Positions 2,073 to 40,551 are shown, numbered from the stretch's first letter. The stretch is 64,000 bases of DNA from an uncultured Bacteroidota bacterium (GCA_903902795.1 CAIUWH010000015.1:13279-77278), one strand, 5' to 3'. Numbers and translations: made by a program. The notes: generated from the letters alone by a model not told the origin.

Positions 2073-2240
2073 TAGACTTCTTAGAATGTTAGATTGTTAG
2101 ATTGTTAGATTGTTGGACTGTAAGATTTTAAGATTGTAAAAATGTAAAATCAGTTAAAGTTGAAAATAGACCTAAAAAAAACAAGACTTCTTAAAAAAAA
2201 TCTAAGAAGTCTAAGTTAGTCTAGAATTCTAATACCTAGA
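2073..2240. repeat. Inverted pair of degenerate 8-mer tandem arrays (TTAGATTG-type)
   Basis: About nine 8-mers at 2081-2152 (ttagaatg, ttagattg x3, ttggactg, taagattt, taagattg...). Complementary tctaa/tctag units at 2201-2240. Perfect 13-bp inverted repeat 2073-2085 / 2201-2213. Confidence 0.85.
2174..2212 (-). terminator. Probable intrinsic terminator after the TonB-receptor gene
   Basis: 10-bp stem 2184-2193 / 2203-2212, followed on the minus strand by ug and U8 (A8 at 2174-2181). Confidence 0.65.
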
Positions 2241-4041
2241 AATCAAATTTATAATTCGCACCCAAAAGCACTTGAATGCCTTGAACAGGATAATTAATCC
2301 ATCTTTGATAATCTTGTCCCGCTAAGTTATTTCCTTTTAAGAAAAAGGTCAAACGTTCGTTTCGCTTGTAACCTACATAAGCGTTTAAGTCAAAAAAGCT
2401 GTCTAAAGTAGCCGTTTCCGGAATGTAATTAGGTAATGGAGCGGCAGTCAAATCGTCTCTGAATGTAATATCTTTTCGTTCTCCAACAAAAAACACCTTG
2501 GTTCCTGCGTACCATTTATCGGTGATATTGAAATCCACATTAGCAGCAATATTCAATCCAGGTAAATTCCACGCTTCTTCTTCTACATCAGAAGTAAACG
2601 AACTAAATGTTCCATTGATTCCGAACGAAACATTTTTCGAGAAATCGGCTTTCAATTCACCATAAAAACTAACGGTTTTTACATTATCATATACCACATT
2701 AAACGAATTACCAAAGGCATAACCATCTTCATTGGTTGTTAAGAAATTGTACGTATTATTTTTAAATAATGCCTTATTATTTTCATTCATCAACGATCCG
2801 CGCAGATTATACCCAATCGTATTGGATAATTTCCCGCGTAAACCTATATAAATATCATACTTTTGATCGGTCGGACCAATGGCTAAGGTAGGCGACACAA
2901 AAAAGTTTTCTTGAGCAAAATCTTTATAGGAGTTTTGTTGTAGTGTTCCTTCAGCTCCCGCGTACGCAATCATTAAATCGCCCACCACTTTGTAGGAAGC
3001 ATTGATTTGTGGATAAATAAAGAACTTATTGTCGCCACCTTCGTTAGCAACGCTGTAGAAAAATGCAGCTCCAAGATTTACCGACAAATCTTCTTGATTG
3101 AGTTGAAAACTAGGATGAAATCCGATATTGGTGTTCCCATATTTATAAGATTCACCACCTAAATACGTTTGATCAAAACTCCCGTTTAAGTAATCAAAAA
3201 TAAAGGTTGCATTTATTTTTTCATCCAACACATCAAAGGCTAAATTAGGTTTGGCATAGAAACGATTTTCACCCGACGAAAAGGCGTCCCAAAAGCGAGT
3301 AAATTTAACTTCTGCTTCTTTAAAAATACTCTCTTTCAAACTTAGTCGACCACCCAAATCGAGTGTATGGTAGGTTTGTTGTTCGTCAATAGTATTGATA
3401 AACTCATCCCTATCTGACGGAGAAAGATTTTGATAAAAAACTGGATTTAAACCATACCAATTATATAGTTGATTGTGGTAGCCAAGATCGACATTCCATG
3501 CCAGATTTCTAGCTTTACTTCCATAGGTTACATCGAGTTCGGTATCGAAAAATTTATCATCTAAAATTACTTCGTCGATTCCGCCTTGCGATGAACTGTG
3601 ACGGAGCATGGCACCAATATAATTGTTGTTTGCCAAGGTTTGAGTAACAAACAACTCGGCATTGATGTTTCCGTAATTTCCGGCTGCTAGCGTTAAATAA
3701 TTTCTGAATAATTTCTCTTTGGCCGATTTCTCTACTCCAGCCGCCTTTCCTTTGGATGGCGTAAACGTGGAAGCCACAGGAAACGAAAATATGGTGTACT
3801 CGATGGTTTCCTTTTTGTTGGTTTCTTCGTCTTCAAAAGAGGGAGTTTCTTTCACTTTAAATGCGTCCGAAATACTTGGCGTGTATGGTTTTACTACGTT
3901 TACGACTTCGCTTCCGATGTTTTCGTCTTTCTTTTGGGAAAACGAAAATTGGGTTGCTAAAAGCAGACTAATAGATAATAGACTAATAGATGATAGACTA
4001 TCAAATTGTGTAAACCGAAATATATTTGTTTTAAAATTCAT
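2236..4041 (-). CDS. Outer-membrane TonB-dependent-receptor-like beta-barrel
   Basis: Signal peptide; EVVNVVKPYTPSISDAFK motif of the Bacteroidota family usually found next to a large TPR gene; C-terminal GANYKFDF with terminal Phe. Confidence 0.8.
   Translation of the reverse strand: MNFKTNIFRFTQFDSLSSISLLSISLLLATQFSFSQKKDENIGSEVVNVVKPYTPSISDAFKVKETPSFEDEETNKKETIEYTIFSFPVASTFTPSKGKAAGVEKSAKEKLFRNYLTLAAGNYGNINAELFVTQTLANNNYIGAMLRHSSSQGGIDEVILDDKFFDTELDVTYGSKARNLAWNVDLGYHNQLYNWYGLNPVFYQNLSPSDRDEFINTIDEQQTYHTLDLGGRLSLKESIFKEAEVKFTRFWDAFSSGENRFYAKPNLAFDVLDEKINATFIFDYLNGSFDQTYLGGESYKYGNTNIGFHPSFQLNQEDLSVNLGAAFFYSVANEGGDNKFFIYPQINASYKVVGDLMIAYAGAEGTLQQNSYKDFAQENFFVSPTLAIGPTDQKYDIYIGLRGKLSNTIGYNLRGSLMNENNKALFKNNTYNFLTTNEDGYAFGNSFNVVYDNVKTVSFYGELKADFSKNVSFGINGTFSSFTSDVEEEAWNLPGLNIAANVDFNITDKWYAGTKVFFVGERKDITFRDDLTAAPLPNYIPETATLDSFFDLNAYVGYKRNERLTFFLKGNNLAGQDYQRWINYPVQGIQVLLGANYKFDF
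3965..4002. repeat. Downstream repeat arm of the four-helix-bundle cassette (ATAGACTA/ATAGAT[A/G] units), inside the TonB-receptor signal-peptide coding region
   Basis: agacta atagata atagacta atagatg atagacta tc; translated on the minus strand as SLSSISLLSISLL. Confidence 0.85.
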
Positions 4042-4047
4042 TTTTAT

Positions 4048-4410
4048 TTAATTTAAAGTATTTTGAAATGACATAGTAGCCTTTTGTAATTCTTCTATTT
4101 TAGATTCTATACTATTTGAAATATCATCAGAAATAAAACTATTCGCATTAGCAATTAAGATTTGTGTTTGAAGTTCAAATGACGAACCTAAAGCGATATC
4201 TAAAAAATGACTAAAGGATTTATTACTTCTACTTGAACCTTCTGCAATATTTGATGAAATTGACACAGAACATCTATTCATCTGACTAATCAATCCATAC
4301 TTTTCTGAAGTGGGTAAACTTGATGTCAATTGAAAAATATCCTTAGCTAAATCCATTGACATTATCCAAATTTTAAGTTTTTTAAAGTTATGCCTCTTAA
4401 AATCATTCAT
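4048..4410 (-). CDS. Four helix bundle protein (23S rRNA IVS / Avd-like family)
   Basis: FKKLKIW...EKYGLISQMNRCSVSISSNIAEG...FLDIALGSSFELQTQ signature; 120 aa. Confidence 0.92.
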   Translation of the reverse strand: MNDFKRHNFKKLKIWIMSMDLAKDIFQLTSSLPTSEKYGLISQMNRCSVSISSNIAEGSSRSNKSFSHFLDIALGSSFELQTQILIANANSFISDDISNSIESKIEELQKATMSFQNTLN

Positions 4411-4417
4411 AGTTTTA

Positions 4418-4453
4418 AGTCTATTATCTATTAGTCTATTCTCTTTCGTCTAT
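4418..4453. repeat. Upstream repeat arm of the four-helix-bundle cassette
   Basis: agtctattatctattagtct (4418-4437) is the exact reverse complement of 3965-3984; an extra gtctat unit at 4448-4453 overlaps the TPR stop codon. Confidence 0.85.
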
Positions 4454-7400
4454 TTAATAATTGACGAATTAGTTTTGGCTTCTTCTGTTTTAATGACATC
4501 CAACTCAGTTTGAGCTTCTAGAAGTACGTCGTCAAATTCTTTGAAATTTTCCAATACACTTTCTAAAATGTAGGTCGCATTGAAGCTATCTTTTAGTCCG
4601 TAAAAGTTTTTCGCCATTACAATTAATCCTTTCGCACCGAAATATTTATATCCTGAATAATCTTTTGACAATTTCTGAACGGCTTTATTTGAGTCTTCAT
4701 ATTTTCCGTCTTTGTTTTTAAAATACGCATCGTAGTACAAGGCTTCTGCAGCTAATTCACCTTTGGCAATTTTTAATAAATTCGCATAGGCTGTTCTGGC
4801 TTTGGCTTCATCATTGACTTTAATCGCAGAACGCGCTACAATAATTTGTGCATCACTTTTTACCTTGTTGTCGGTTTTGGGATTGTTCAGCACTTTATCA
4901 GCATACACCACAGCATTGGAATAGTCCTTCTGATCATAATACGCGCGCATCAAATTGGATTGTGCGAAGGTGATGTTTTGTGGAAAATCGGCTTCGGCTT
5001 CCAATCGTTTTAAAACCGGAATCGCTTTCGCAAAATCGTTTTTATTTAAGTGAATTTCGGATAAACGAGCGAGCGATTGTTCAGTGAATTCGTTGCGTGA
5101 TTTAGCAATCACGTATTCGTAATTCGGAATCGCGTTCGACTGCAAATTATCAGCAAAATACAACTGACCCAAGTAGAAATTAGCTTTCAAGGCATGAATT
5201 CCGTTTGGAAATTTAGAAACGTAACCGTTTAATGACGAAATCGCTTGTTTGACATTGTTTTGTAAATACTGTTTTTCTGCGGCTTCGTAGGTATCATTAT
5301 CCAATTCAGCATCCGAAACCTCAACAAAATCAAGTGTTCGCACCCACGAAGCGTATTCATCCACTTTTCCGTTATCCATATAAATCAAACGTGCGGTAGA
5401 AACAGCCTCTAAAGCTTCGGGCGATTTTGGAAAATCAGCCGCTACTTTTTTGAATTTTGTGATTGCTAATTCGCCTTTGTTGCCATTATAATACACCAAA
5501 CCTTGACGTAAAATTGCTTTAGAAGCGTACAACCCTTTCGGGAACTCTTTTAATAACTGATCATAAGTCGTCAACGCCAATTCGGTTTTGCCGTCTGCAA
5601 CATAGGTGTTACCTAGTTCAAATAATGAATCATCACGGTATTGCGACGTTTTGAAATTCTGCAAGAACTTATTAAAATCTTCAATTTTCTTATCGTTTTT
5701 CTGTACAAATCCGTAGCTGATCGCCTTCTGAAATGCGGCATAGTCGGCGTCTACACTTTTCAACTCAATGGCTTTGTTGTAGGCATCCATCGCTGGCCAG
5801 TATTTTGCCGCTACGAAACGACTGTCACCCAATCGAAGATAGGCATCATTCAAACGCGTTTTATCATCTTTGGATACATCGATGTAACTTTGGAAATAAT
5901 TTCCAGCTTGGTCGTATTCTTTTTGTTTGAAATAGGCGTAGGCAATATTGTAATTGATGTTTTTGAATTCGGGTGTATTTTTCGCTTCAGCAAATCCTTC
6001 AAACTGCTTAAAACTCAACAAAGCCTCGTTGAAACTGTCTAAAACGTATTCGGTTTCACCTTTCCAAAAAGTAGCGCGGGCTGCAAATTTTTGGTCTTTT
6101 TGCTCTGCAATTGACTTCTTAAACATTTTCAAAGCGTCCTGGTAACTTCCGTCGGTGTACAATTCTAATCCGCGGTAGAACGTCACTTTTTGATAGGCGG
6201 ATTTGTAAAGCGGATTTCTATTTTTCTCCAACAAGGTCAACGCTTCTTTATAATTTTTGGACGTGATGTACGAATTAATCAACAAACCCTCGATTTCATC
6301 TTTACTAGGTGAACTTGGGTATTTAGTAATAAAAGCCGACAAAACATCCGGCACACTTTGGTAGGAATTACCCAATTCGTAACTCAGTTTCGCATAATTC
6401 AAATTGGCATCTTCTTGAATTTTTTTGTCGAAATCCATTTCAGAAGCACTTTTAAACGCATTCAATGCTTGTTGTTTTCTATCGCTTTTCAAATAACTTT
6501 CACCCAGATGGTAATAGGCATTTTGCGAAATAAAATCAGTTCCATCAATAATTTTATTGAATTGCGAAATGGCGTTTTCAAAATCGTTCAACTTGTAATG
6601 CGTGTAACCCAATTGATAATAATCGGTATTGTTCCATTTGCCTTTTCTTCCTTTATATTCTTTCAAATAAGGCAAGGCTTTATCGTATTGTTTGAGGTTG
6701 AAATAACTTTCGCCTATTATTTTGTTGAGTTCTGATTTTTCGGCTGCGTTCGATTTGGCCATTGCTACTGTACCTAAATCGATTGCTTTTTGAAAATTCC
6801 CCAACTTAAAATTCATGTCAGCCTGAAAATAAGACAGCTTTTCTTTGTATTTCTCTTCGCCTGAAATTTGGTCAAAATACTTAGTTGCTTCTTTGTAATC
6901 GTCATTTTCATAGGACATCGTTCCTAGATAATATTTGGCTTGCGCACCGTATTCTTTGGAATTCGCGACTTTATTGAGGTAATTGGTCGCTTCCTTTTTC
7001 TTTCCCGCCGAATAATAGGCGTATCCTTTTTGAAAGTTGAATTTTTCCAATTCTGTATACGTTAGTACACTTTCGTCTACTTTATCAAAATACTCTAGCG
7101 CTTGAGGATAGCGTCCGGCTTCAAAATAATAATGCGCCACTCCTACAAACGCTTGGTTTTGTTTGGTGCTGGTTGGGTAATCCGAAACAAAATCTTCCAT
7201 CAATTGATCCGCGTTACTTTGATCGAGGCGAATGGCGGAATTGGCAATATAAAACGAACAATCCGACATTACTTCTTGGTTGGTCGATTTTTGTTTCACT
7301 TTTTCGAATAAAATCTGAGCTGCTAAAAACTGTTTGTCATTGTACAGCGCAACCGCTTTGTCAAAATCGGAATTGTCATGCGTATTTATTGCTGATTGTT

Positions 7401-7464
7401 GAGCGTTTAGGGACAAACTTCCCGTCCATAAAATAAGATAAAGTAACATCGAAAATTTTCGCAT
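4450..7464 (-). CDS. Large tetratricopeptide-repeat periplasmic protein
   Basis: Many TPR-like helical repeats. Likely start MRKFSMLLYL at 7464, which gives a signal peptide; the ORF-track start at 7554 looks like an over-extension. Confidence 0.88.
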   Translation of the reverse strand: MRKFSMLLYLILWTGSLSLNAQQSAINTHDNSDFDKAVALYNDKQFLAAQILFEKVKQKSTNQEVMSDCSFYIANSAIRLDQSNADQLMEDFVSDYPTSTKQNQAFVGVAHYYFEAGRYPQALEYFDKVDESVLTYTELEKFNFQKGYAYYSAGKKKEATNYLNKVANSKEYGAQAKYYLGTMSYENDDYKEATKYFDQISGEEKYKEKLSYFQADMNFKLGNFQKAIDLGTVAMAKSNAAEKSELNKIIGESYFNLKQYDKALPYLKEYKGRKGKWNNTDYYQLGYTHYKLNDFENAISQFNKIIDGTDFISQNAYYHLGESYLKSDRKQQALNAFKSASEMDFDKKIQEDANLNYAKLSYELGNSYQSVPDVLSAFITKYPSSPSKDEIEGLLINSYITSKNYKEALTLLEKNRNPLYKSAYQKVTFYRGLELYTDGSYQDALKMFKKSIAEQKDQKFAARATFWKGETEYVLDSFNEALLSFKQFEGFAEAKNTPEFKNINYNIAYAYFKQKEYDQAGNYFQSYIDVSKDDKTRLNDAYLRLGDSRFVAAKYWPAMDAYNKAIELKSVDADYAAFQKAISYGFVQKNDKKIEDFNKFLQNFKTSQYRDDSLFELGNTYVADGKTELALTTYDQLLKEFPKGLYASKAILRQGLVYYNGNKGELAITKFKKVAADFPKSPEALEAVSTARLIYMDNGKVDEYASWVRTLDFVEVSDAELDNDTYEAAEKQYLQNNVKQAISSLNGYVSKFPNGIHALKANFYLGQLYFADNLQSNAIPNYEYVIAKSRNEFTEQSLARLSEIHLNKNDFAKAIPVLKRLEAEADFPQNITFAQSNLMRAYYDQKDYSNAVVYADKVLNNPKTDNKVKSDAQIIVARSAIKVNDEAKARTAYANLLKIAKGELAAEALYYDAYFKNKDGKYEDSNKAVQKLSKDYSGYKYFGAKGLIVMAKNFYGLKDSFNATYILESVLENFKEFDDVLLEAQTELDVIKTEEAKTNSSIIK

Positions 7465-7667
7465 AGCCTTGTGTTTTGTAATTACCAAAATTAGATTAGT
7501 ATGCAAGGATAACGAACCATAGCGGTTATTTATTATAAACATTTTTCTTAACAATTTAAAGGACTGACGAAGTATCCAGTAAATAATTGTAAATCATGAA
7601 TAAATCATAATTTTATTTTGAAAAGCTACGTTATCTTATTACTTTTACCCACTAAATTAAACATCTT

Positions 7668-8351
7668 ATGTCTGAATCTGTTTTATCGTTAAAAAACGTT
7701 AGTATTTATCAATCGAATAGAGTAATCTTGTCGAACATCAACTTAGAAGTGAAACACGGCGAGTTCATTTACATTATTGGTAAGACAGGTTCGGGAAAAA
7801 GTAGTTTGATCAAAATGCTTTACGGTGATTTGCCTTTAACTACCGGAGAAGGTCATATTGTAGAATACGATTTGGTGCATTTGAAGGAAAAAGAAATTCC
7901 GTTTTTACGCCGAAAAATTGGTATTGTATTCCAAGATTTTCAATTGCTTCCGGATCGAAATGTATCCGATAACATGCTTTTTGTATTGAAAGCCACTGGC
8001 TGGACTGATAAAGAGCAAATGCAAAATAAAATGGAAGAAGTATTGGATAAGGTAGGCATGAAAGGATTTGCAACTAAAATGCCACACCAATTGTCCGGCG
8101 GTGAACAACAACGTGTTGCTATTGCACGCGCATTGTTAAACGATCCAGAGTTTATTTTAGCAGATGAACCAACCGGTAATTTAGATCCTCAAACCAGTGT
8201 AGAAGTTTTGGATGTTTTGAAAAAAATCAACGCCAACGGAAAAACGATTATCATGGCTACTCATGATTACGCATTATTGATGAAGTTCCCATCGAAAACT
8301 TTAAAATGTGAAGACGGTTCTATTTTTGAGGTAGTTCAGAAAACAGTTTAA
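7668..8351 (+). CDS. ftsE: FtsE-like ABC ATP-binding protein
   Basis: Walker [44 protein letters not shown]. Confidence 0.8.
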
Positions 8352-9604
8352 CGGATTTTCCCTTTATCTTTTAAAAATTTAGCCGTTAAAACAATAACTA
8401 AAGGAAAGAATACCATATGGAAACGGTCGCCCTGACTGAACGTAATTCCTGAAACAGCAATGATGTAGAGGATAAAACTTGAAAGCAAAGTAAAAAAGAC
8501 TTCCTTTCGGTAACTTGTTACAAAATAGAAGAGCGCTAAAATCCCACCAAATAGCGTGAAGAAACGGTTTTGCCACTTCGATATATCAAAAATTACGTCC
8601 TTCGAGAAATCAAAATAACGAGTATTTTTTTTATTTTGACAATCGGCAATTGCGGCTGACCCTGAAACGGTATTGTCATAAATATCTGAAAAATAAGCTT
8701 TTAGCAAATTTAACTTGTTGTTCTTGAGTTGATCGAGTACATCTTGCCGCACCACTTTTTGAATTTCATCGTGCGAACCCAAATTCAATAAGTTATTTGC
8801 CCTCGGATTATCGATTTCTGTATAATCCACACCATCTTTGTAACTCATGGCTTTCGCACCGATATAATTATAGTACGTAACTCCATCAATATAACTAATG
8901 GTAAAACTTCCGAATTGATGGTACAAGCCGGCGCATTGAATTAAAACCAATAGTATGCTTCCATAAACTAAAAGCATTGCTTTTTTGGCATAATTTTCAA
9001 CTATAACTTTGATGAAATAAATTCCGAAAACAAAAGCAATCCACTTCGAACCCGGACGAATAAGCATGCTACAAATCAGAATCGACAGTGCTAATGATAA
9101 AAACAGTATTTTCTTGTTTCTGTAATATTTCATCAAAAAAAACATCGATAGTACGATGAAAAAAGTATAAATAGTTTCGGAAAGTAGGTGATACAACACA
9201 GCAATTGCGCCGACACTGGTATAGAAAATCAACGTACAATAAAACGCCATTCGTGCGGTACTAAAATCTTTGAGAATATGAAATAGTAAAACGGCCGTTG
9301 CGAGCCAACAAAAGACATTGACATAAAAACTAAAAACATAGACTGTTGCATCGCTTGCTCCAAATAAGAAGGGAACTCCGTTTATCGCCGACATAAGAAT
9401 CGGTCTATAATCATGACCTCTAAAATAAACCATCAGATTTTTGGAAGCAACCAAATAATTATCAGAATCGGCGTAAACATGAGTTTGAATATCTAGCTGA
9501 AGAAAAAAATTCAAAAGCGCCAACGTGAGCACGCCAAAAAAGAGAATTAGCAATTCGAATTTATATTTTTGGAAGCGTTCGATCATAGAAACAAAACTAA
9601 TCAA
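8348..9604 (-). CDS. Polytopic membrane protein, possible GT-C/ArnT-like glycosyltransferase or polymerase
   Basis: About 10 hydrophobic segments; DSDNY...RP and LLSETIY motifs resembling GT-C proteins; adjacent to the glycan cluster. Confidence 0.5.
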   Translation of the reverse strand: MISFVSMIERFQKYKFELLILFFGVLTLALLNFFLQLDIQTHVYADSDNYLVASKNLMVYFRGHDYRPILMSAINGVPFLFGASDATVYVFSFYVNVFCWLATAVLLFHILKDFSTARMAFYCTLIFYTSVGAIAVLYHLLSETIYTFFIVLSMFFLMKYYRNKKILFLSLALSILICSMLIRPGSKWIAFVFGIYFIKVIVENYAKKAMLLVYGSILLVLIQCAGLYHQFGSFTISYIDGVTYYNYIGAKAMSYKDGVDYTEIDNPRANNLLNLGSHDEIQKVVRQDVLDQLKNNKLNLLKAYFSDIYDNTVSGSAAIADCQNKKNTRYFDFSKDVIFDISKWQNRFFTLFGGILALFYFVTSYRKEVFFTLLSSFILYIIAVSGITFSQGDRFHMVFFPLVIVLTAKFLKDKGKIR

Positions 9605-9661
9605 ATTATTGTAGTTTCAAATTAGAAATGTAGATTTGTGGCATTAATAGGCATTTTAACA

Positions 9662-12762: not shown

Positions 12763-12763
12763 T

Positions 12764-19369: not shown

Positions 19370-21724
19370 TTGAGAATACAACTTAGAAAATTCATCTTTA
19401 GTATTTTACTACTTGCTTTTTGTACGATTTTCGGGCAAAATGTATCGTTGTACCAACAATTTAATGGGCGATACGATTTTACTTTCGTTGGAAATACGAT
19501 GAATTTAGGAGAAAATAATACCACCGCAGGATGTACCGATTTACTTGTAACTTCATCTGCCGCCAATTTATCGTTGAACAGTACTCAAACCATTGAAGGT
19601 GTCTATTTATATTGGGCTGGTTCTGGTTTTGGCGATTTTAATGTGCAATTAAACGGAACTTCAATAACCGCACAACGTACGTTTACCAATGTAAGTGTAA
19701 CCTCTGGTTTGAACTATTTTAGTGCGTTTGCCGATGTGACGGCGCAAGTTACAGCTACCGGAAACGGTTCGTATACCTTGTCGGATTTGGATATTTCAAC
19801 CGACTTAACAACTATCCCGGGTTATTGCAATAACCGAACTAATTTTGCAGGTTGGACGATGGTAGTCATTTACCGCGACTTGAGTTTGCCGCTGAATCAA
19901 ATTAATGTTTACGATGGCTTGCAAAGTATTCCGAATACGCTTTCGATCACGCTTACAAGTCTAAACGTCATCAATACCGCTGGAGCTGAAATTGGTTTTG
20001 TGGCTTGGGAAGGTGACAGTAATTTGGCGATTGGAGAAACCTTGCGATTAAATGGAACTATTTTGAGCAATCCTCCTTTAAATCCGGCTAATAATGCCTT
20101 TAACGGAACCAATAGTTTTACCAACAACCCTAATTTGTACAACATGGATTTGGATGTGTACAACATTCAGAATAACATCACCGTCGGAAGTACCACAGCG
20201 CTTATTGAAATGTCCTCGGGACAAGATGTCGTTCTGATGAATTGCGTGGTAACCAAACTCAACAGTCAGTTACCCGATGCCACAATTGCGATTACCAACA
20301 TCGAAAAGCAGTGCGATTCGCGGACTATTTTAGTTGATTACACTGTTTTCAACACCAATTCTACCGATAGTTTACCCGCGGGAATTCCGATTGCGATTTA
20401 CCTAAACGGTCAATTTTTTGAATACACTGAAACTTTAGCTCCAATTGCAATCGGCGGTTCAGAAAGCAGTCAAATTACTTTAGTGATACCCAATTCGATT
20501 CCGCTTGATTTTACCCTTCAATTTGTAGTGGATGATAACGGAACTGGATTGGGAATAGTAACCGAAATCAACGAGAACAACAACAGCGATAGTGAGACTG
20601 TTTCTCTTTTAGTTACGCCCGATTACAATCCGTTACCGGATATTTTTTCGTGTGTTTCGGTCATCGAAAATACGTCGGTCGACTTTTCAAATTATGCTTC
20701 CATAGTACTGACTGATCCAACTCATACCGTGGCTTTTTACACCAGTTTTAGTGATGCTAATTTGGAATTAAATCCGATTACCAACCTTTCGAATTATATC
20801 GTTAATTTACCTTCCACAACCATTTACGTGCGGATCAACGATGGAAGTTGTTTTGCCATTACATCGTTTGACATTCGCTTAGTCCTGTTTCCAAGTTTTA
20901 ATCCGCTGGACGATTTGTATACGTGTCGGATTGATGAATTTTCGGTCTTTGATTTTTCTGAGTATCAAAACGATGTTAAAGTAAATCCAACCGATATAGT
21001 AACGTTTTATGAAACAGCAACCGATGCTTCATTAGAAACCAATCCAATTGTGAACATCACGCAGTATCTTCCCAATTCAACTCCAAAAGAAATTTTTATT
21101 CGCATCGATAACGGTCCGTGTTTCAGCGTGACTTCCTTCTTTTTAGACTATAATGACTTACCTGAGTTCAATAATTTGGATGATTTGCTGGCATGTAACG
21201 AAGGCTTAACGCGAGGAACATTCGATTTTTCAGCGTATGAAACGACGGCTAAAGTAGATCCAAATGATAGCGTTTCGTTCCATCAAACTTTAGATGATGC
21301 CCAAAGTGAAAACAACGAAATTGTAAATACCTCATCCTTTATAGCTGATGCGACTCCGAAAGAAATCTTTGTTCGTGTGGAAAACGAAAATTGCTATTCG
21401 GTTACATCGTTTGTATTGACGACTGAAAATTGTCCGCCAACAGTTTACAACTATATTTCAGCCAATAACGACGGATTCAATGAAGCTTTTTTTGTAGGAG
21501 GATTGCGTGATATTTTCTTAGAATTTGAAATTGAAATTTACAACCGTTGGGGAAAACTAATTTGGACAGGCAATAACTCAACACCCGACTGGGACGGATT
21601 TGCCATTGAAGGTTATCGCTGGGATAATTCTAATTCGCCCAAAGGAACTTTTTACTACATTCTCTATTTGAATGACGAAAATTATCCAGCACCTTTGCAA
21701 GGATACTTGTATTATACGAAGTAA
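19370..21724 (+). CDS. T9SS type-B substrate with CARDB-like domain and gliding-motility C-terminal domain
   Basis: Signal peptide; VVDDNGTG...EINENNN (CARDB-like); C-terminal NYISANNDGFNE...IYNRWG...GTFYYIL. Confidence 0.85.
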   Translation: MRIQLRKFIFSILLLAFCTIFGQNVSLYQQFNGRYDFTFVGNTMNLGENNTTAGCTDLLVTSSAANLSLNSTQTIEGVYLYWAGSGFGDFNVQLNGTSITAQRTFTNVSVTSGLNYFSAFADVTAQVTATGNGSYTLSDLDISTDLTTIPGYCNNRTNFAGWTMVVIYRDLSLPLNQINVYDGLQSIPNTLSITLTSLNVINTAGAEIGFVAWEGDSNLAIGETLRLNGTILSNPPLNPANNAFNGTNSFTNNPNLYNMDLDVYNIQNNITVGSTTALIEMSSGQDVVLMNCVVTKLNSQLPDATIAITNIEKQCDSRTILVDYTVFNTNSTDSLPAGIPIAIYLNGQFFEYTETLAPIAIGGSESSQITLVIPNSIPLDFTLQFVVDDNGTGLGIVTEINENNNSDSETVSLLVTPDYNPLPDIFSCVSVIENTSVDFSNYASIVLTDPTHTVAFYTSFSDANLELNPITNLSNYIVNLPSTTIYVRINDGSCFAITSFDIRLVLFPSFNPLDDLYTCRIDEFSVFDFSEYQNDVKVNPTDIVTFYETATDASLETNPIVNITQYLPNSTPKEIFIRIDNGPCFSVTSFFLDYNDLPEFNNLDDLLACNEGLTRGTFDFSAYETTAKVDPNDSVSFHQTLDDAQSENNEIVNTSSFIADATPKEIFVRVENENCYSVTSFVLTTENCPPTVYNYISANNDGFNEAFFVGGLRDIFLEFEIEIYNRWGKLIWTGNNSTPDWDGFAIEGYRWDNSNSPKGTFYYILYLNDENYPAPLQGYLYYTK

Positions 21725-21728
21725 GAAA

Positions 21729-21820
21729 TACGAAGTACGAGATACGAAGTGGGAAATGAAAAGAAGAAATAACTACCTATATTTACCTCGTATATCGTAC
21801 TTCAACCTTCGTACTTCACA
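21729..21820. repeat. Inverted pair of heptamer arrays (TACGAAG / CTTCGTA) between convergent genes
   Basis: tacgaag tacgaga tacgaag ... cctcgta tatcgta cttcaac cttcgta cttcaca; 21732-21749 pairs with 21786-21803 at 16/18 positions. Confidence 0.85.
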
Positions 21821-22564
21821 TCACATGTTTTGTGTGTAATAGTTATAATCTTTAATCACTGTTTTGATAAAATCTTCACTACTACCCGATTGATTTTTGA
21901 TCCCGGTCACCGACTCAATTTTGTCTTTTAATTTCACAATCATGTCGATATCGCCTTTTACAATAGCAGAATGCAAAGTTTCTTTAATGATCCGCACATC
22001 GTTGTCCGAAAGCTTGATTACTAAAGGATAAATAGGCACATACGCATCACCAATATCTTCTAAAATGGTACTGTTGATGGTTACTTTATTTTTCAGTGTG
22101 ATTACAGCTGTACCTGCAGACATGTCACCCAGTCGTTGCGTTTTACTACTTGCTATCAACGTAATTAAACCGATTACACCGCTGTTGGTACTAATGTCTA
22201 TAATTCGAAATAACCACCGAATCAAATAATCACCAAATGATGCTTGATACCCATCAATCTTTACCACTTTTATCTTCATGAGTCGCTTTCCTAGCGTTTG
22301 CCCTTCCAAAATACTTTCTAAGGTTAATGAATAAAACATATAAGGCAGTAAAAATAAAACAACTACAGCAGCCGCTGACCATTGGTCTAATTTTGAAAGT
22401 ACCTTTTCTAATCCCATTAAATCAAAAACGACGAAACCAATAACGATTAAATACGCTACTTTAATCAGAAAATCAATTACATACGCTAAAATTCGTTCAC
22501 CCACAGAAGCAGCTTCAAAATTTATGTTGACATTTTGTGTGGTATTTATGGTGAGTTCTGACAT
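21821..22564 (-). CDS. RDD family membrane protein
   Basis: ASVGERILAYVIDFL, GQTLGKRLMKIKVV, QRLGDMSAGT. Confidence 0.9.
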   Translation of the reverse strand: MSELTINTTQNVNINFEAASVGERILAYVIDFLIKVAYLIVIGFVVFDLMGLEKVLSKLDQWSAAAVVVLFLLPYMFYSLTLESILEGQTLGKRLMKIKVVKIDGYQASFGDYLIRWLFRIIDISTNSGVIGLITLIASSKTQRLGDMSAGTAVITLKNKVTINSTILEDIGDAYVPIYPLVIKLSDNDVRIIKETLHSAIVKGDIDMIVKLKDKIESVTGIKNQSGSSEDFIKTVIKDYNYYTQNM

Positions 22565-33724: not shown

Positions 33725-33732
33725 TATCTTTG
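33725..33732 (+). promoter_or_regulatory. Bacteroidota sigma70 -7 element
   Basis: tatctttg upstream of ATG 33739. Confidence 0.55.
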
Positions 33733-33738
33733 CCTACT

Positions 33739-34197: not shown

Positions 34198-34245
34198 TTG
34201 CTTTTAGCTGACAGCTTAAATAAACAACCCACAATACAACAAAAA

Positions 34246-35517
34246 ATGACTGTAGATTTACTACTCGGATTACAATGGGGCGATGAAGGAAAAGGAAAAA
34301 TCGTCGACGTTCTGACTTCAAAATACGATATAATTGCTCGTTTTCAGGGCGGACCAAACGCTGGACATACATTGGAATTTGACGGAATCAAACACGTCTT
34401 GCGCACCATTCCATCGGGAATTTTCCACGATAACAACATCAACATCATCGGAAACGGGGTTGTAATCGATCCCGTAGTTTTTAAAAGTGAAATCGACGGA
34501 TTGGCGAAATTCAATTTAGACATCAAATCAAAATTAATCATTTCACGTAAAGCGCATTTAATTTTACCAACCCATCGATTACTCGACGCAGCTTCTGAAG
34601 CATCCAAAGGTAAAGCCAAAATTGGATCTACCTTAAAAGGAATTGGCCCGACGTATATGGACAAAACCGGCCGAAACGGAATCCGCGTAGGCGATATTGA
34701 AATGGCGGATTTTAAAGAAAAATACCGCGCTTTGGCTAACAAACACGAGGAGATGATTAAATTCTACGATGTGGCCATTCAGTATAATTTACCCGAATTA
34801 GAAAAAGAATTTTTTGAAGCGATTGAAGACTTGAAAAAGTTGACTTTCATTGATAGTGAAGAATATTTAGCGCAAGCTCAAAAAGCTGGAAAATCAATTT
34901 TATGTGAAGGTGCGCAAGGTTCCTTACTCGACGTAGATTTCGGAACCTATCCGTATGTAACTTCTTCTAATACGACAGCTGCTGGCGCTTGTACGGGATT
35001 AGGAATCGCTCCGAACAAAATCAAAGAGGTTTTCGGAATTTTCAAAGCGTACACCACTCGTGTAGGTTCAGGACCATTTCCAACAGAAGATTTTGGCGAT
35101 GCAGGCGATGTCATGGCTAGTGTCGGAAACGAATTTGGTTCGGTTACCGGACGAAAAAGACGTTGCGGTTGGTTGGATTTAGTCGCGTTGAAATATGCGA
35201 TACAAGTCAACGGTGTAACCCAATTGATGATGATGAAAGGCGACGTATTATCTGGTTTTGAAACGTTAAAGGTGTGTACCTCGTACAAGTATAAGGGAGA
35301 AATAATTCAGCATTTACCTTACAATATTGAAGAAGAAAATGTTACGCCGATTTACACTGAATGCAAAGGTTGGAAAGCCGATTTAACCGGATTGACCACT
35401 TTTGACAGTTTACCCAAAGAATTGAAAGACTATATCGAATTCATTGAAAAAGAAGTCGAAGTTCCAATCAAAATTGTGTCGGTTGGACCGGACAGAAAAC
35501 AGACCATTTTAAAATAA
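34246..35517 (+). CDS. purA: Adenylosuccinate synthetase
   Basis: GLQWGDEGKGK, GGPNAGHT, EGAQGSLLD, TGRKRRCGWLD; start MTVDLLLG at 34246. Confidence 0.97.
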   Translation: MTVDLLLGLQWGDEGKGKIVDVLTSKYDIIARFQGGPNAGHTLEFDGIKHVLRTIPSGIFHDNNINIIGNGVVIDPVVFKSEIDGLAKFNLDIKSKLIISRKAHLILPTHRLLDAASEASKGKAKIGSTLKGIGPTYMDKTGRNGIRVGDIEMADFKEKYRALANKHEEMIKFYDVAIQYNLPELEKEFFEAIEDLKKLTFIDSEEYLAQAQKAGKSILCEGAQGSLLDVDFGTYPYVTSSNTTAAGACTGLGIAPNKIKEVFGIFKAYTTRVGSGPFPTEDFGDAGDVMASVGNEFGSVTGRKRRCGWLDLVALKYAIQVNGVTQLMMMKGDVLSGFETLKVCTSYKYKGEIIQHLPYNIEEENVTPIYTECKGWKADLTGLTTFDSLPKELKDYIEFIEKEVEVPIKIVSVGPDRKQTILK

Positions 35518-35522
35518 ATAAA

Positions 35523-35554
35523 AAACCCTTTCGTAATGGAAAGGGTTTCTTTTT
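35523..35554. terminator. Bidirectional intrinsic terminator between purA and the amylase gene
   Basis: aaaccctttc-gtaatg-gaaagggttt stem with A and T tracts on either side. Confidence 0.75.
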
Positions 35555-35562
35555 ATAATTAT

Positions 35563-37434
35563 TTATTGAAGCTTCAACACAAAACTCTCACTCGCACCGA
35601 TACTGACTTTTACATTTCCCACACCGTTTTCAACTTTCAAATACGTCGTGCTTCCGTATAATTGATCGACTAGCGGATACTCACCATCTTTCAACTTCCA
35701 AGTTGCAATGACATCAGACGGAATTTTCAATCCAAAACTGCTGTTTGACACCCATGAGAAATTGGCCACAATGATAAGTTTTTCGTTTGCTGACCAACGT
35801 ACAAAAGAGTAAATTCCGGGATCATACCCATTCGTTACATCTCTATTATCCGATTGGATTTCTTTGAATTTACCCATTAAGGCATCGCTTTTTATCGAGA
35901 AGTTCAATAATCGTTTGTAAAAGTCGCGCAAGTCCTTTTCGTCTTTGGATAATTGTCCGCCGTCAAATTTTCCGCCATTCATCCAACGTTGGTGACTCGG
36001 AACTCCGACATAATCAAAAATCGATGTGCGTGAACGCGTTCCAAATCCGCCGTTTTCATTACCTGCTTCACCTACTTCTTGTCCGAAATACACCATGGTT
36101 GGCGCCGAACTCAACGTCGTCGAAACCACCATTAGCGGTTTTCCTTTTTCGGGAGTTCCCGCAAATTCAGGACTTGCCAAACGTTGTTCATCGTGATTAT
36201 CCAAAAAGTGCAACATATGATGTTCGATATCGGCCATTCCTTTTTGGATTTCTGAAAGTCCGTCGGGTATTTTTTTGCCTTGGATTACGTCTTTCAAATG
36301 ATCGTAAGTTTCTACCTTATCATACAGATAGTCCATTTTTCCAAGCTGAATATAATTTCTGTATTCGTTCGGATTGTATACTTCTGCCAATAAAAACGCA
36401 TGTGGATTTTTCATTTTTATAGCCGAATTCATATAACTCCAAAATTCATACGGAACCATTTCGGCCATATCGTATCGAAATCCGTCAACTCCTTTTGCCG
36501 TCCAATAGAGTGCAATATCTCTGAATTTTATCCACGAACTTGGAACATTTTTATCCTTCCAAAAAGCGAAATGTTCTTTGTATGATTTTTTATCGTAACC
36601 TGCTGGCAATTCAGGAAAATCTTTAGAACCATCTGGTCGGATTCCGTAATTTACTTTTACGGTTTCATACCAATCGTTGATGTCGGGTTTGGCCAAACGC
36701 GAACCATTTCCTGTCCATTTTGCTGGATTTTCATCGAATTTCCCATCAATAAGCGGATTTTTTTCTCCGTTCAATGGTCTATAATTGTCGGATGTTGGCA
36801 CTTGAAAGGCTTGTCCCGGAATGTAATAAAAGTTGTTATCTCGGGCATATTCGACGTTTACATTATCGTCGGCACCAAAATCGCGAACGCCTTTCGGATT
36901 GCTTTTTCCATCATACTTTCGAGCAATGTGATTGGGAACGATATCAATTAGTAATTTCAATCCGTTTTTGTGGGTGCGAGCAATTAAGGCTTCAAATTCT
37001 TCCAAACGCTTCGCCGGATTGACAGCCAAATCAGGATTCACATTGTAATAATCTTTTACGGCATAAGGCGAACCTGCGCGACCTTTCACCACTTCGGGAT
37101 CATCATTAGAAATTCCGATTGAGGTGTAATCGTTCACCAAAGCATGATGCGGCACTCCGGTATACCAAATGTGCGTTACACCTAAATTTTTAATTTCCGT
37201 TAAGGCTTTATCGGTAAAATCGTTAAACTTCCCTACTCCGTTTTCCTCGATCGTTCCCCAAGGTTTGTTGGTTGTATTCTGATTTCCAAATAATCGCGTA
37301 AACACTTGATAGACCACTTTCTTCTTTTCCACGACGGTAACTTTTTTATTCGATTTACTTACTTTTTTCTTTTTGTTTTGTGCGGGAGCACTTATCGCTC
37401 CTAAAATCAACACCAATAGCAATAACTTTTTCAT
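35563..37434 (-). CDS. GH13 alpha-amylase family glycoside hydrolase
   Basis: DIVPNH, GVDGFRYDMAE, LAEVY, FLDNHD conserved regions; signal peptide. Confidence 0.92.
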   Translation of the reverse strand: MKKLLLLVLILGAISAPAQNKKKKVSKSNKKVTVVEKKKVVYQVFTRLFGNQNTTNKPWGTIEENGVGKFNDFTDKALTEIKNLGVTHIWYTGVPHHALVNDYTSIGISNDDPEVVKGRAGSPYAVKDYYNVNPDLAVNPAKRLEEFEALIARTHKNGLKLLIDIVPNHIARKYDGKSNPKGVRDFGADDNVNVEYARDNNFYYIPGQAFQVPTSDNYRPLNGEKNPLIDGKFDENPAKWTGNGSRLAKPDINDWYETVKVNYGIRPDGSKDFPELPAGYDKKSYKEHFAFWKDKNVPSSWIKFRDIALYWTAKGVDGFRYDMAEMVPYEFWSYMNSAIKMKNPHAFLLAEVYNPNEYRNYIQLGKMDYLYDKVETYDHLKDVIQGKKIPDGLSEIQKGMADIEHHMLHFLDNHDEQRLASPEFAGTPEKGKPLMVVSTTLSSAPTMVYFGQEVGEAGNENGGFGTRSRTSIFDYVGVPSHQRWMNGGKFDGGQLSKDEKDLRDFYKRLLNFSIKSDALMGKFKEIQSDNRDVTNGYDPGIYSFVRWSANEKLIIVANFSWVSNSSFGLKIPSDVIATWKLKDGEYPLVDQLYGSTTYLKVENGVGNVKVSIGASESFVLKLQ

Positions 37435-37457
37435 GATAGGATTTTTTACATCGGTAA

Positions 37458-37465
37458 CAAATATA
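37458..37465 (-). promoter_or_regulatory. Bacteroidota sigma70 -7 element for the amylase gene
   Basis: caaatata on the plus strand = TATATTTG on the minus strand. Confidence 0.5.
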
Positions 37466-37583
37466 AAAAAAGGAACAGAAGTTCAACTATACAAGTCTGT
37501 TTTCTATGTTCTTTTTTCTATTTTCTTTTTCTACTAACCTTATAAATATTTCTTAATAAACCCCACACTTTACAGATTTTACT

Positions 37584-37591
37584 TAAATTTG
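37584..37591 (+). promoter_or_regulatory. Bacteroidota sigma70 -7 element for the OstA-like gene
   Basis: taaatttg upstream of TTG 37609. Confidence 0.5.
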
Positions 37592-37608
37592 GCTCAAAAT
37601 TACACCCG

Positions 37609-39246
37609 TTGAAAAAACACCTCGCTATTTTTCTTTTTATTCTGCCTTTTTTCGTCAATGCTCAAGTGGTACAAAACGGTGCTATTGTTATTGAACACGC
37701 TGATTTTCAGGACATCAACCAGTATGAGTTTCCAGATGCCATGATACTTACAGGTAACATTAGAGCCAATCACGACGGGGCAATTGTGACGTGTAACAAG
37801 GCCTACTATTACATGAAAGAAAATTATTTGAAAGCCTTCGGTAATGTTCAAATTGTTCAAGGCGATACGTTATTCCTAAGTGGAAATTACGCCGAATACA
37901 ACGGCAATGTAAAACAAGCCTACACCACTGGAAATGTATCGTTGCGTTCGCCCGAAATGTCGTTGGTAACTGATAAAATTAACTTTGACAGAAATACGCA
38001 AATTGCTTCCTACGATACTTTCGGAACTATTGTAAACAAAGACAATACGTTGACGAGTAACCAAGGAAAGTACTATGCTTCACAAAAGAAATATCAATTC
38101 TTAAGTGCAGTAACCATTACGAATCCGAAATACGTTATAAAGTCCAATCACATGGATTATTACACGAATTCGGGTCACACCTATTTATACGGACCATCAA
38201 CAATAACTGGGAAAGACAACTTTATTTATACCGAAAAAGGATTTTACAACACCAAAACCAACAAAGCGCATTTCGTCAAAAACTCGTACATTAAGTACAA
38301 CGACCGCCTCATCAAAGGCGATAGTTTGTATTACGATCGCACGCGCGAATTTGCCTCAGCAACCCGAAATGTAAAAATAACCGACTCCATCAACAAAGCC
38401 ATCATCAAAGGTCATTATGGTGAAGTGTATCGAAATAAGGATTCCCTTTACATTACCAAAAGAGCTTCGGTACGTTATTTTATTGATAACGATTCGATGT
38501 TTGTGCACGCCAAAAGACTAGTGGTTACCGGAAAACAAGGCGAACGAGTAGTTCGAGGCTACAATAACGTACGCTTTTTCAAAACCGATATGAGTGGAAA
38601 ATGTGATTCGATTCATTCCGATCAGAAAAAGGCGTTAACTCAAATGATTGGAAAACCCATATTGTGGAATTACGAAAATCAGTTAACAGGCGATGTCATG
38701 CACCTTATTGGGAATAATAAAAGTGAAAAACTCGATTCACTTAAAGTACTAAACAATGCCTTCATCACCTCGAAAGACACCATCGGAACAGGTTATAATC
38801 AAGTGAAAGGGCAAAATTTATACGGAAAATTCACAGACAATAAGCTGAGTGAAGTCGATATCATCAAAAACACAGAAGTCATTTATTATATGCGTGACGA
38901 CGATAATCAACTGATTGGTATTAACAAAAATGTAAGTAGTAAAATCAATATTATTTTTGATAAAGATCAAATTGAAACCATTACGTTTTTCACCGATGTA
39001 GATGGCGACATTTATCCCGAAAAGGAATTACCGGAAAACACCCGAAAACTCCGCGGCTTTAATTGGCGTGGCGATGAGCGAATAAAAACGAAAGAAGATA
39101 TTTATCCGCCCGAAGAAAATCAGTACGACCTCGATGCCCAAAAGGAAAAGCAAAAAGAAGATGCCATTCCCGACGCACCGATGGAAGTCCGAAAAGAAAC
39201 GTTGGAATACGATAAGAATAATCCGCAAAAGCCCGTTATAAAATAG
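37609..39246 (+). CDS. OstA-like (LptA/LptD N-terminal fold) protein
   Basis: Signal peptide; repeated beta-jellyroll segments; FFKTDMSGKCDSIH and LRGFNWR motifs of the Bacteroidota OstA-like family. Confidence 0.8.
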   Translation: MKKHLAIFLFILPFFVNAQVVQNGAIVIEHADFQDINQYEFPDAMILTGNIRANHDGAIVTCNKAYYYMKENYLKAFGNVQIVQGDTLFLSGNYAEYNGNVKQAYTTGNVSLRSPEMSLVTDKINFDRNTQIASYDTFGTIVNKDNTLTSNQGKYYASQKKYQFLSAVTITNPKYVIKSNHMDYYTNSGHTYLYGPSTITGKDNFIYTEKGFYNTKTNKAHFVKNSYIKYNDRLIKGDSLYYDRTREFASATRNVKITDSINKAIIKGHYGEVYRNKDSLYITKRASVRYFIDNDSMFVHAKRLVVTGKQGERVVRGYNNVRFFKTDMSGKCDSIHSDQKKALTQMIGKPILWNYENQLTGDVMHLIGNNKSEKLDSLKVLNNAFITSKDTIGTGYNQVKGQNLYGKFTDNKLSEVDIIKNTEVIYYMRDDDNQLIGINKNVSSKINIIFDKDQIETITFFTDVDGDIYPEKELPENTRKLRGFNWRGDERIKTKEDIYPPEENQYDLDAQKEKQKEDAIPDAPMEVRKETLEYDKNNPQKPVIK

Positions 39247-39295
39247 GAAAACACAGCGAATCAAAGCATATTAGACTCGCCTTTTGAAGCAGCAT

Positions 39296-40483
39296 ATGAA
39301 TAACGATTTCCTAAAATACCAAGCACAAACTTCGCCTTACCCATTAGGAATGGAAGTTTCACATGCCATTGGTTCCTACATCTACGATACAAATAATAAG
39401 AAATACCTCGACTTTGTTGCGGGTGTTTCGGCTTGCTCTTTAGGCCATCAAAACCCACGAGTCAATCAAGCTATTAAAGAACAATTGGATAAGTATTCGC
39501 ATGTAATGGTGTATGGCGAATATTCACAAAGTCCAGCTGTGCAGTATTGCAAACTATTGGTCGAACACTTACCACCACAATTAAATAAAGTCTACTTAGT
39601 TAATTCGGGGACCGAAGCCTGTGAAGGCGCATTAAAACTTGTACGAAGAGTGACTGGTAGAAGTCAGCTAATTTCCTGCCATAATGCTTACCACGGCAAC
39701 ACTATGGGCTCGATGAGCGTGATGGGATTTGAAGAACGGAAGCAAGTATTTCGTCCGTTGATTCCCGATGTCGATTTCATCACCTTCAATAACGAGGCCG
39801 ACATCCAAAAAATCACTAGCAAGACAGCCGGAATTATTTTGGAAAGTATTCAAGGTGGTGCAGGATTTATTCAGCCCGAAAACGACTTCTTAGCTAAAGT
39901 AAAAAAAAGATGCGAGGAAGTTGGTACATTGATGATTATCGATGAAATTCAACCCGGATTTGGACGAACCGGAAAATTATTCGGCTTTGAAAACTACAAT
40001 GTGGTTCCCGATGTAGTCATCATCGGAAAAGGAATGGCAGGCGGAATGCCCGTTGGCGGATTCATTGCACACGAAAAGCACATGGATCTGTTGAGTCATG
40101 ATCCGAAACTCGGACACATCACCACTTTTGGCGGACATCCTGTCATTGCGGCAGCTTGTTTGGCAACATTGCAAGAAATACTTGAAAATGACTATGCTTC
40201 GCAGTCATTAGCGAAAGAAAAGCTGTTTCGTTCGCTTTTGGTACATCCTTTGATAATAGAAGTAAGAGGAAAAGGATTAATGTTGGCTGCTATGACCTCC
40301 GACGAAGAAATAACCAATCAAGTTGTTTTGCGATGTCAAGAAAAAGGATTGATATTATTTTGGTTGTTGTTTGAAGGAAAAGCAATCCGAATCACACCAC
40401 CCTTAACAATTTCTGAAGAAGAAATTAAAGAAGGTTGCCAAATTATATTGGATGTGATGGATGAAGTTCAAAAAGGTTTATAG
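39296..40483 (+). CDS. Class-III PLP aminotransferase (acetylornithine aminotransferase-like)
   Basis: NSGTEACEGA, YHGNT, DEIQPGFGRTG, IGKGMAGG, TTFGGHP. Confidence 0.9.
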   Translation: MNNDFLKYQAQTSPYPLGMEVSHAIGSYIYDTNNKKYLDFVAGVSACSLGHQNPRVNQAIKEQLDKYSHVMVYGEYSQSPAVQYCKLLVEHLPPQLNKVYLVNSGTEACEGALKLVRRVTGRSQLISCHNAYHGNTMGSMSVMGFEERKQVFRPLIPDVDFITFNNEADIQKITSKTAGIILESIQGGAGFIQPENDFLAKVKKRCEEVGTLMIIDEIQPGFGRTGKLFGFENYNVVPDVVIIGKGMAGGMPVGGFIAHEKHMDLLSHDPKLGHITTFGGHPVIAAACLATLQEILENDYASQSLAKEKLFRSLLVHPLIIEVRGKGLMLAAMTSDEEITNQVVLRCQEKGLILFWLLFEGKAIRITPPLTISEEEIKEGCQIILDVMDEVQKGL

Positions 40484-40551
40484 TTTATGGTTTATAGTTA
40501 GTTGTTAACTTCGAACATAAACGATAAACAATAAACCATCAGCAATAAACT
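40475..40551. repeat. Inverted pair of heptamer arrays ([G/A]GTTTAT / ATAAAC[N])
   Basis: ggtttat agtttat ggtttat ... ataaacg ataaaca ataaacc atcagca ataaact; 40475-40495 pairs with 40517-40537 at 19/21 positions. Confidence 0.85.

Follow-up and report, generated by a model that had tools for sequence, protein, structure and literature searches.

What kind of element is made of a tandem array of 7- to 8-nt units followed by the reverse complement of that array, set close to a stop codon, when the unit changes from one gene junction to the next? The question is raised by a 64,000-nt stretch of DNA (hereafter the window), positions 13279-77278 of contig C15 (CAIUWH010000015.1) in the draft genome, 2.77 Mb in size and 37% GC, of an uncultured Bacteroidota bacterium. 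Four junctions in the window (sites 1 to 4, between positions 2,073 and 40,551) carry such inverted array pairs, and one of them, site 2, encloses a gene for a small four-helix-bundle protein of the S23p/PF05635 family. An initial annotation of the window took the empty pairs to be possible scars or landing sites of four-helix-bundle cassettes, or binding or processing sites of the protein, and offered them as a candidate for an undescribed system. Repeat and pairing analysis recovers all four pairs where that annotation had placed them, with periods of 7-9 and 2.4-7.1 copies according to Tandem Repeats Finder (TRF). All four lie between protein-coding open reading frames (ORFs), none in a 23S rRNA gene. 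The annotation was also right that within the window only one pair contains a gene. No Rfam family matched anywhere in the window. Its DNA recurs across many lake metagenomes, and the relatives of its proteins in public records belong to Flavobacterium, Chryseobacterium and other Bacteroidota.

The four sites are members of a genome-wide population, which comprises about 75 gene-less pairs and about 11 that enclose a small gene. This emerged from a scan of the genome for inverted short-period arrays, in which genes were called by a longest-ORF heuristic, intergenic segments were taken together with 45 nt on each side, and pairs were detected without gaps at a fixed threshold, the partner being sought within 200 nt. 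The real spacers hold 763 short-period arrays, 75 of them with an inverted partner and 20 with a direct partner. Five dinucleotide shuffles of the same spacers gave 0-1 of either kind, so chance is not the source of the pairs and the architecture is real. The TRF rows of period 7 tell the same story: there are 294 in the real spacers versus about 21 in the shuffles, an excess of about 14-fold, and two thirds of the period-7 arrays sit in the non-coding 10% of the genome. What the initial annotation saw as a common architecture (array, loop, reverse-complement array beside a stop) is thus recurrent and non-random, and it matches the one that brackets the four-helix-bundle gene.

The pairs keep close to stop codons throughout the genome, as they had been said to do within the window. 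At co-directional junctions a pair begins a median of 5 nt past the upstream stop and ends a median of 19 nt before the next start, and it lies nearer to the stop than to the start in 37 of 53 cases (p = 0.005). In many pairs 0-30 nt separate the end from the next start codon, within what appear to be operons. Per kb of spacer there are 0.37 pairs between co-directional genes and 0.38 between convergent genes, against 0.11 between divergent genes, where they are about 3.5 times rarer. Low density at divergent junctions and proximity to the stop together fit an element that is transcribed and follows a stop codon. The arrays are usually of 3-5 units, and the stems are AT-rich, 20-30 bp long and interrupted by regularly spaced mismatches.

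Then there is the matter of the units. The initial annotation held that the architecture was conserved and the sequence was not. This is true of the architecture, and within the window the units do differ from site to site, but across the genome they fall into recurrent families: CGACAAC (45 loci), AGAAGGC (22), TAGAAAA (21), TACGAAG (at least 19), AAATTCC (16) and GTTTCAA (12). There are more than 15 such AT-rich families, whose units have at most 2 G and no G-tracts. Only the short unit is common to the members of a family, their loops and flanks being unrelated. Polarity is fixed within each family, and several families extend to a congener (G023): in a single 400-kb sample of its genome, to which comparisons of density and families with this species are confined, the density of pairs is equal, and CACAGATT, AAATYCC and TAGTRAT units, common to both species, have the same polarity.

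The polarity follows a rule. Read in the mRNA sense, an arm with a start codon next to it is poor in G; junctions that lack a start codon follow no rule. In 48 pairs the distal arm has more C than G, versus 16 with the opposite bias (p = 8e-5). The G-poor arm is the one beside the start codon at 35 of 46 tandem junctions and at all 7 divergent ones, while convergent junctions, with 6 versus 5, have no bias. Arrays of the CGACAAC family are sense-oriented, 34 to 8. This start-linked polarity is the sole strand-specific signal found, and a G-poor arm on the start side suggests that the transcribed leader is under constraint. The window also contains a solitary period-7 array (37496-37533; TCTATTT/TCTTTTT) in the divergent spacer upstream of a gene starting at 37609. 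It is G-poor on the plus strand, as the rule would have it for an array near a start.

I propose that the pairs are stem-loops built by slippage in transcribed spacers, and that they act in the processing of mRNA 3' ends or in translational coupling. This is a tentative proposal, to which I give a probability of about 0.42. Pairs would be built and remodelled as the non-coding spacer 3' of a stop gains or loses repeat units whole. Length does change unit by unit: at site 1 one whole 8-nt unit, at position 2087, is missing from contigs of three of four lake metagenomes. Slippage would account for such a change. Remodelling is also seen in the heptamers of the site 4 junction, which differ from one close relative to the next. 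The spacer would be transcribed, and the pair would fold from the stop codon onwards as an imperfect RNA stem-loop of 20-30 bp, usually with no U-tract. Such a stem might serve at the 3' end of a message or between cistrons, either cut by RNase III, as are the stems of the intervening sequences (IVSs) of 23S rRNA, or standing as a barrier to 3' exonucleases. With the G-poor distal arm beside the next start, the stem would hide the leader up to the moment when a ribosome comes to terminate on the stop-proximal arm and opens the stem; this opening would couple the translation of the two genes. Bacteroidota do without Shine-Dalgarno sequences. The gene-less pairs have a building principle in common with the four-helix-bundle hairpin, yet are probably neither scars nor landing pads of that cassette.

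A stem of 20-30 bp is of a length that suits a nuclease of double-stranded RNA (dsRNA), and the genome encodes an RNase III that has domains of both kinds, catalytic and dsRNA-binding. Two frames, C23:1744-2340 and C98:16583-17338, bear the signature ERLEFLGD of this enzyme and are similar in neighbouring sequence. This is a case either of a paralogue or of contamination (the contamination estimate for the bin is 3.45%).

A good deal weighs against the proposal. If the stems work as RNA, one might look for a difference between the strands, and there is none in fold stability between sense and antisense RNA (25 versus 28) and no sense-strand excess of G-U pairs (98 versus 121). The pairing therefore bears no RNA-specific signature. 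Within unit families the arms pair with their own partners no clearly better than with arms from other loci, which means that there is no base-pair-level co-evolution in the gene-less pairs; compensatory evolution was tried as an argument and dropped for this reason. Comparison with relatives is no kinder. Eight further pair-bearing junctions are syntenic in G023, and at none of the 8 are both array and hairpin present there, with no positional enrichment (n = 8). At the junction orthologous to site 4, six of nine close relatives have a short array of heptamers immediately 3' of the stop, with a different unit in each, and a related hairpin is found in just one of 28 relatives (G066), more distant relatives having nothing there. 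The absences in G023 and the near-solitary site 4 hairpin argue for weak selection or none, and the gene-less pairs turn over quickly between congeners. (The site 3 junction is not syntenic in G023.) Furthermore, 15 pairs lie between convergent genes, so translational coupling cannot apply to those pairs. Finally, the single metatranscriptome with this organism yields a few contigs of 150-230 nt, too thin a record to map RNA ends.

Because the pairs turn over and their pairing carries no signal specific to RNA, a neutral explanation is nearly as likely as a function of the stem-loops. It is possible, if doubtful, that the pairs are a mutational by-product: a lineage-specific bias towards slippage of 7-8 nt fills free spacers, template switching makes the inverted partners, and selection acts only against harmful composition on the start side. 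Besides the turnover, this would explain the polymorphism of unit length in populations, the absence of a folding advantage on the sense strand, and arms that mirror each other no further than the consensus of their family. Among long simple repeats, it is tandem heptamers that are most strongly over-represented in many bacterial genomes. Their excess in many bacteria has been put down to polymerase slippage (Mrazek 2007, as reported in PMC4679880 and PMC4692102). It is too much to expect of random local seeding, however, that the same unit families should appear at 12-45 loci, and in another species with equal polarity. Nor would inverted partners be expected to exceed direct ones by 75 to 20, or about 13 of 21 relatives to retain, at the site 1 junction, arrays of 8-mers or hairpins made of arrays that end a little short of the downstream ATG, although their units drift. 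Far less can be said for the idea that the pairs are ordinary rho-independent terminators with stems that are repetitive by accident, which I consider very improbable. Enrichment after stops and depletion between divergent genes agree with it, and two cases look the part: the CRCAGATT family is an exception among the families in having an A-tract / stem / T-tract layout, as does an inner hairpin at site 1. A classical terminator has a short GC-rich stem and a U-tract, though, and only 7 of 53 tandem pairs have six or more U/T in the 10 nt after the stem, the mean of 3.4 T being the background level. Most pairs are therefore not classical terminators, and their long AT-rich stems with regular mismatches, many of them ending just short of the next start inside apparent operons, are also out of keeping with that role.

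What of the scars and landing sites of the initial annotation? In its general form the idea is that the gene-less pairs are non-autonomous derivatives, like MITEs (miniature inverted-repeat transposable elements) or repetitive extragenic palindromes (REPs), or are scars or landing sites, of selfish cassettes nested in hairpins and carrying PF05635, GxxExxY (TIGR04256) or GIY-YIG genes. The bracketing of such genes is real: inverted flanks surround 6 of 7 testable PF05635 and 5 of 7 GxxExxY genes, versus about 0.7% of other genes. In other genera and phyla, Ignavibacteriae, Fibrobacteres and Nomurabacteria included, 58% of 76 PF05635 loci are armed versus 1.6% in a flank-swap control, and nearly all arms have period 7 or 8. 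Moreover, the arms of most other cassettes in the genome belong to unit families with 7-70 gene-less loci, a signature like that linking REPs to their transposases. Nevertheless, the arm sequence of the window cassette has no other copy in this genome, and sites 1, 3 and 4 contain neither an ORF of the family nor a remnant of one. A hidden Markov model search in all six frames found no PF05635 or GxxExxY fragments in the empty loops, and the unrelated loops and flanks of family members reveal no target duplications. The pairs thus lack what would mark a MITE: terminal repeats and an interior in common with an autonomous parent, and duplication of the target. Presence/absence alleles of the cassette were absent from four lake metagenomes, in which the unit indel of site 1 was the only variant seen; a 77-nt skip in run X27 is not trusted, one side of it being only 27 nt. 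PF05635 has no known enzymatic activity. In 21-28 relatives no PF05635 gene stands at the junctions orthologous to sites 1, 2 and 4, which disfavours the reading of the annotation. Probably, then, the gene-less pairs are neither scars of the four-helix-bundle cassette nor sites where it lands, and I regard derivation from cassettes in general as unlikely. A protein could instead read the arrays as periodic sites, for example a toroidal pentamer of PF05635 with one 7-8-nt unit per subunit, the gene-less pairs being its regulon. The closest solved structure, 2GSC, is a homopentamer (PMC4990558), arrays are mostly of 3-5 units, and one arm family has been conserved along with its gene across genera. 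PF05635 arms (56 loci) have in common a degenerate core and a polarity stricter than that of the gene-less pairs: the distal arm has more C than G in 51 of 56, TCT exceeds AGA by 124 to 15, and the same bias in gene-less pairs is 77 to 9. The abundant GTTTCAA, CGACAAC, AAATTCC and TACGAAG families lack the AGA/TCT core, however, the genome has 8 PF05635 paralogues for its more than 15 unit families, and adjacency to start codons explains the polarity of gene-less pairs more simply. I give it little credence. A wider version is just as much of a long shot: PF05635, GxxExxY and GIY-YIG genes would form one system with the array hairpins, in which the PF05635 pentamer would read arms with the AGA/UCU core as RNA or single-stranded DNA, gene-less pairs of matching families would be its targets in trans, and the whole would give Bacteroidota a post-transcriptional network for processing or coupling at cistron boundaries, with the 23S IVSs as a special case.

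Site 2 is the cleanest of the four and the one that carries a gene. That gene (4048-4410, minus strand), in the loop, encodes 120 amino acids matching PF05635 (E 4e-33) and NCBIfam TIGR02436, and PDB 2GSC, which is XCC0516, a PF05635 protein of Xanthomonas campestris, is the closest solved structure to its product with an E of 9e-18. It is transcribed, as judged by a metatranscriptome contig of 151 nt that falls within it (4214-4364). The arm consists of ATAGACTAATAGATA repeats; its 15-nt super-unit is an alternation of 7 and 8 nt (AGACTAAT / AGATAAT). One arm (3965-4000, minus) lies inside the ORF 2236-4041, and the other (4418-4454, minus) overlaps the stop codon (4450-4452) of a TPR gene, 4450-7554. 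Along 27 nt the second arm is 93% complementary to 3973-3999, with a perfect core of 20 nt, and the two arms close the whole of a predicted 511-nt fold.

Cassettes of Chryseobacterium and Kaistella can be aligned with this one as DNA, together with their arms, which belong to the same 7+8-nt ATAGAYNN family. Since homologous genes in those genera are flanked by the same arms, the arms travel with the gene. That they are conserved across genera and unique in this genome indicates that the cassette brings and keeps its own arms, whereas gene-less pairs turn over. Of 20 PF05635 loci in relatives, 15 have periodic arms, 18-60 nt long and up to 97% complementary, in which even the order of variant units is mirrored. 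I considered whether arms are copied from local host sequence, that is from signal-peptide codons or from last codons and stop. For the cassette this is rejected by the presence of the same arms in Chryseobacterium and Kaistella; at site 4 such copying may have occurred.

Some peculiarities surround the cassettes. Translation of the arm at 3965-4000 gives the hydrophobic core (SLSSISLLSISLL) in the signal peptide of an outer-membrane protein, the product of gene 2236-4041, and the ATGAATTTTAAA start of this gene sits between the stop of the four-helix-bundle gene and the arm. In orthologues of the gene the alignment starts only at residue 22-26, and they are shorter by about 15 codons in this part. 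In a Chryseobacterium locus (L101, 960-1130) the homologous four-helix-bundle gene is followed, ahead of the closing arm, by another forward array (AGATAATAGACAAAA x4), and the hairpins are nested as a result. Elsewhere in the present genome two GIY-YIG nuclease genes encoding about 100 amino acids (C78:23515-23838 and C58:88779-89090) each lie in a perfect but non-periodic inverted repeat of 29-35 nt.

Site 1 is the loosest of the four. Its start-proximal array (2073-2137, minus) has seven copies of TTAGATTG on the plus strand (TRF period 8, 7.1 copies). On the sense strand, here the minus strand, it reads as a G-free CAATCTAA leader array that stops 3 nt short of the ATG (2070) of ORF 1627-2070. 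The stop-proximal array (2196-2240, minus) is of 9-mers, of TCTAAGAAG type on the plus strand (TRF period 9), which on the sense strand read TTAGACTTC directly 3' of the stop (2236-2238) of ORF 2236-4041. The two arrays differ in their unit, 8-mer versus 9-mer, and therefore only 18 nt pair (2196-2240 array with 2073-2090), with 89% complementarity. Inside the site is the terminator-like inner hairpin (2172-2213, minus), predicted in the minimum-free-energy fold of 2066-2245 on the minus strand as a 12-bp stem, AGACUUCUUAGA / UUAAGAAGUCU, followed by U8. Compared with shuffles, the fold of site 1 is weak (z -2.2).

Site 3 lies between convergent stops, at 21724 and 21821. Its G-type arm (21714-21750; no strand assigned) consists of TACGAAG units and overlaps the stop of ORF 19370-21724, whose product carries a CHU_C type IX secretion signal domain. 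The C-type arm (21785-21817; likewise without a strand), of CTTCGTA units, ends 3 nt before the stop of an RDD-family gene on the minus strand (21821-22564). The stem that they form (21718-21750 / 21785-21817) is imperfect, 33 nt with 79% complementarity, and the predicted RNA fold is -29 kcal/mol on one strand and -36.7 kcal/mol on the other, with z of -4.0 and -5.6 against shuffles.

At site 4 the G-type arm (40476-40506, plus), of GTTTATA units, starts in the last codons of an aminotransferase gene (39284-40483) and takes in its TAG (40481-40483). The C-type arm (40520-40550, plus) is made of TATAAAC / ATAAAC units. The stem is again imperfect (31 nt, 77% complementary); its predicted fold is -23.1 kcal/mol, and z is -6.9 and -3.3 on the two strands. 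U-tracts are absent at sites 3 and 4, and among the four sites only the inner hairpin of site 1 has the layout of a terminator. Right after site 4, within 40552-40600 and about 75 nt upstream of the next gene, a TPR gene at 40649, there is a TGTTAATTAAATTGTTCAAAACAA box. It hardly varies in seven of eight close relatives and can still be made out in more distant ones, amid surroundings that vary, and it has the look of a conserved promoter or operator. One further repeat in the window, a 66-nt tandem duplication at 43146-43279 (two copies, 77% identity) in ORF 42954-45272, lies in coding sequence and has no relation to the arrays of short units.

It remains to set the pairs beside what is known. 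REPs, singly or in bacterial interspersed mosaic elements (BIMEs), are short extragenic palindromes at the 3' ends of genes, often in inverted pairs, and the gene for the cognate REP-associated tyrosine transposase (RAYT) is flanked by the same repeat. REPs have a conserved sequence of 20-40 nt and a fixed 5' tetranucleotide, with no internal periodicity. The array pairs, by contrast, are periodic and have only a short unit in common. Two IS200-like genes do occur in the genome, C28:21428-21871 and C119:53225-53821, one a Y1 transposase (PF01797) and the other transposase-like by eye with no Pfam match. They are flanked by REP-like hairpins of their own (CCTCCAGCTTCAGCTGGAGG; CCTAACAGGT..ACCTGTTAGG), non-periodic and different from the array pairs, and the pairs are not a REP/RAYT system on that account.

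Heptamer direct repeats in 5' untranslated regions, TAACTGA among them, are known from Beggiatoaceae, cyanobacteria and some Bacteroidetes (PMC4679880), and from Nostoc (bioRxiv 10.1101/2022.06.06.494920). They form forward arrays a few nt upstream of a start, much like the start-proximal arms described here, and the 34 to 8 sense orientation of the CGACAAC/CAACTGA family is a further likeness. Those repeats are nearly all direct and unpaired, however, apart from one inverted set in a genome of the Beggiatoa family, whereas here at least a quarter of the arrays have an inverted partner.

The initial annotation thought the system undescribed. This cannot be upheld, as paired heptamer arrays have been reported at least from Xanthomonas and from Geobacter metallireducens. 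In the latter, "global regulator sites" of 3-5 tandem repeats of 7-9 nt (TCTCCGTS[Y], MTYCTGA) occur in dozens of copies and have been read as putative protein-binding sites (Aklujkar et al. 2009, PMC2700814). As here, the sites are mostly paired on opposite strands at variable spacing, but their units are GC-rich, and the published account connects them neither with stop codons nor with nested genes. In Xanthomonas, GGGAATC heptamers make 70-75 inverted pairs per genome, in arrays typically of about 4 copies, 89-93% of which are intergenic, and they are transcribed (Rehm et al. 2015, PMC4692102). The likeness is close: tandem 7-nt units, often paired with an array on the opposite strand, vary in copy number between relatives, lie within tens of nt of a stop or overlap it, and are enriched between co-oriented ORFs and rare between divergent ones. 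There are three differences. Xanthomonas has one G-rich unit able to form G-quadruplexes, as in the G-tract subclass that it shares with Nostoc, whereas here there are many AT-rich families with too few G for that; positional conservation is 83% between Xcc and Xac and low here; and here polarity is tied to start codons. I found no published report that links paired arrays to start-codon polarity or to nested gene families.

The closest parallel to site 2 is with 23S rRNA. In Coxiella burnetii the IVS has a 28-bp stem with heptamers in tandem, whose copy number varies, and RNase III cleaves it at the first heptamer (PMC4990558). A long terminal stem enclosing an S23p/PF05635 ORF, as in the IVSs of Coxiella and Leptospira, is the design of site 2, with its 27-nt stem and 511-nt fold. 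Sites 3 and 4 likewise have extended stems, imperfect and of 31-33 nt. IVS hairpins that have no ORF occur in other bacteria. On the other hand, IVSs reside in helices 9, 25 or 45 of 23S rRNA, and their excision by RNase III has been demonstrated; the present sites are between protein genes, and only site 2 has the ORF.

The pairs are thus of a kind already known and still unexplained, of which this genome has an AT-rich variant with many families. The paired, stop-adjacent form of heptamer array has twice been in print with no explanation, and the version described here adds two handles on it: the polarity rule at start codons, and the difference between slowly evolving arms borne with a gene and fast-turning gene-less pairs. 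If the stem-loops process or couple cistrons, they would be a general device of operon expression in Bacteroidota. If they are neutral, they would be a strong read-out of a lineage-specific bias in slippage. Either outcome bears on an old puzzle, the origin of the intervening sequences of 23S rRNA.

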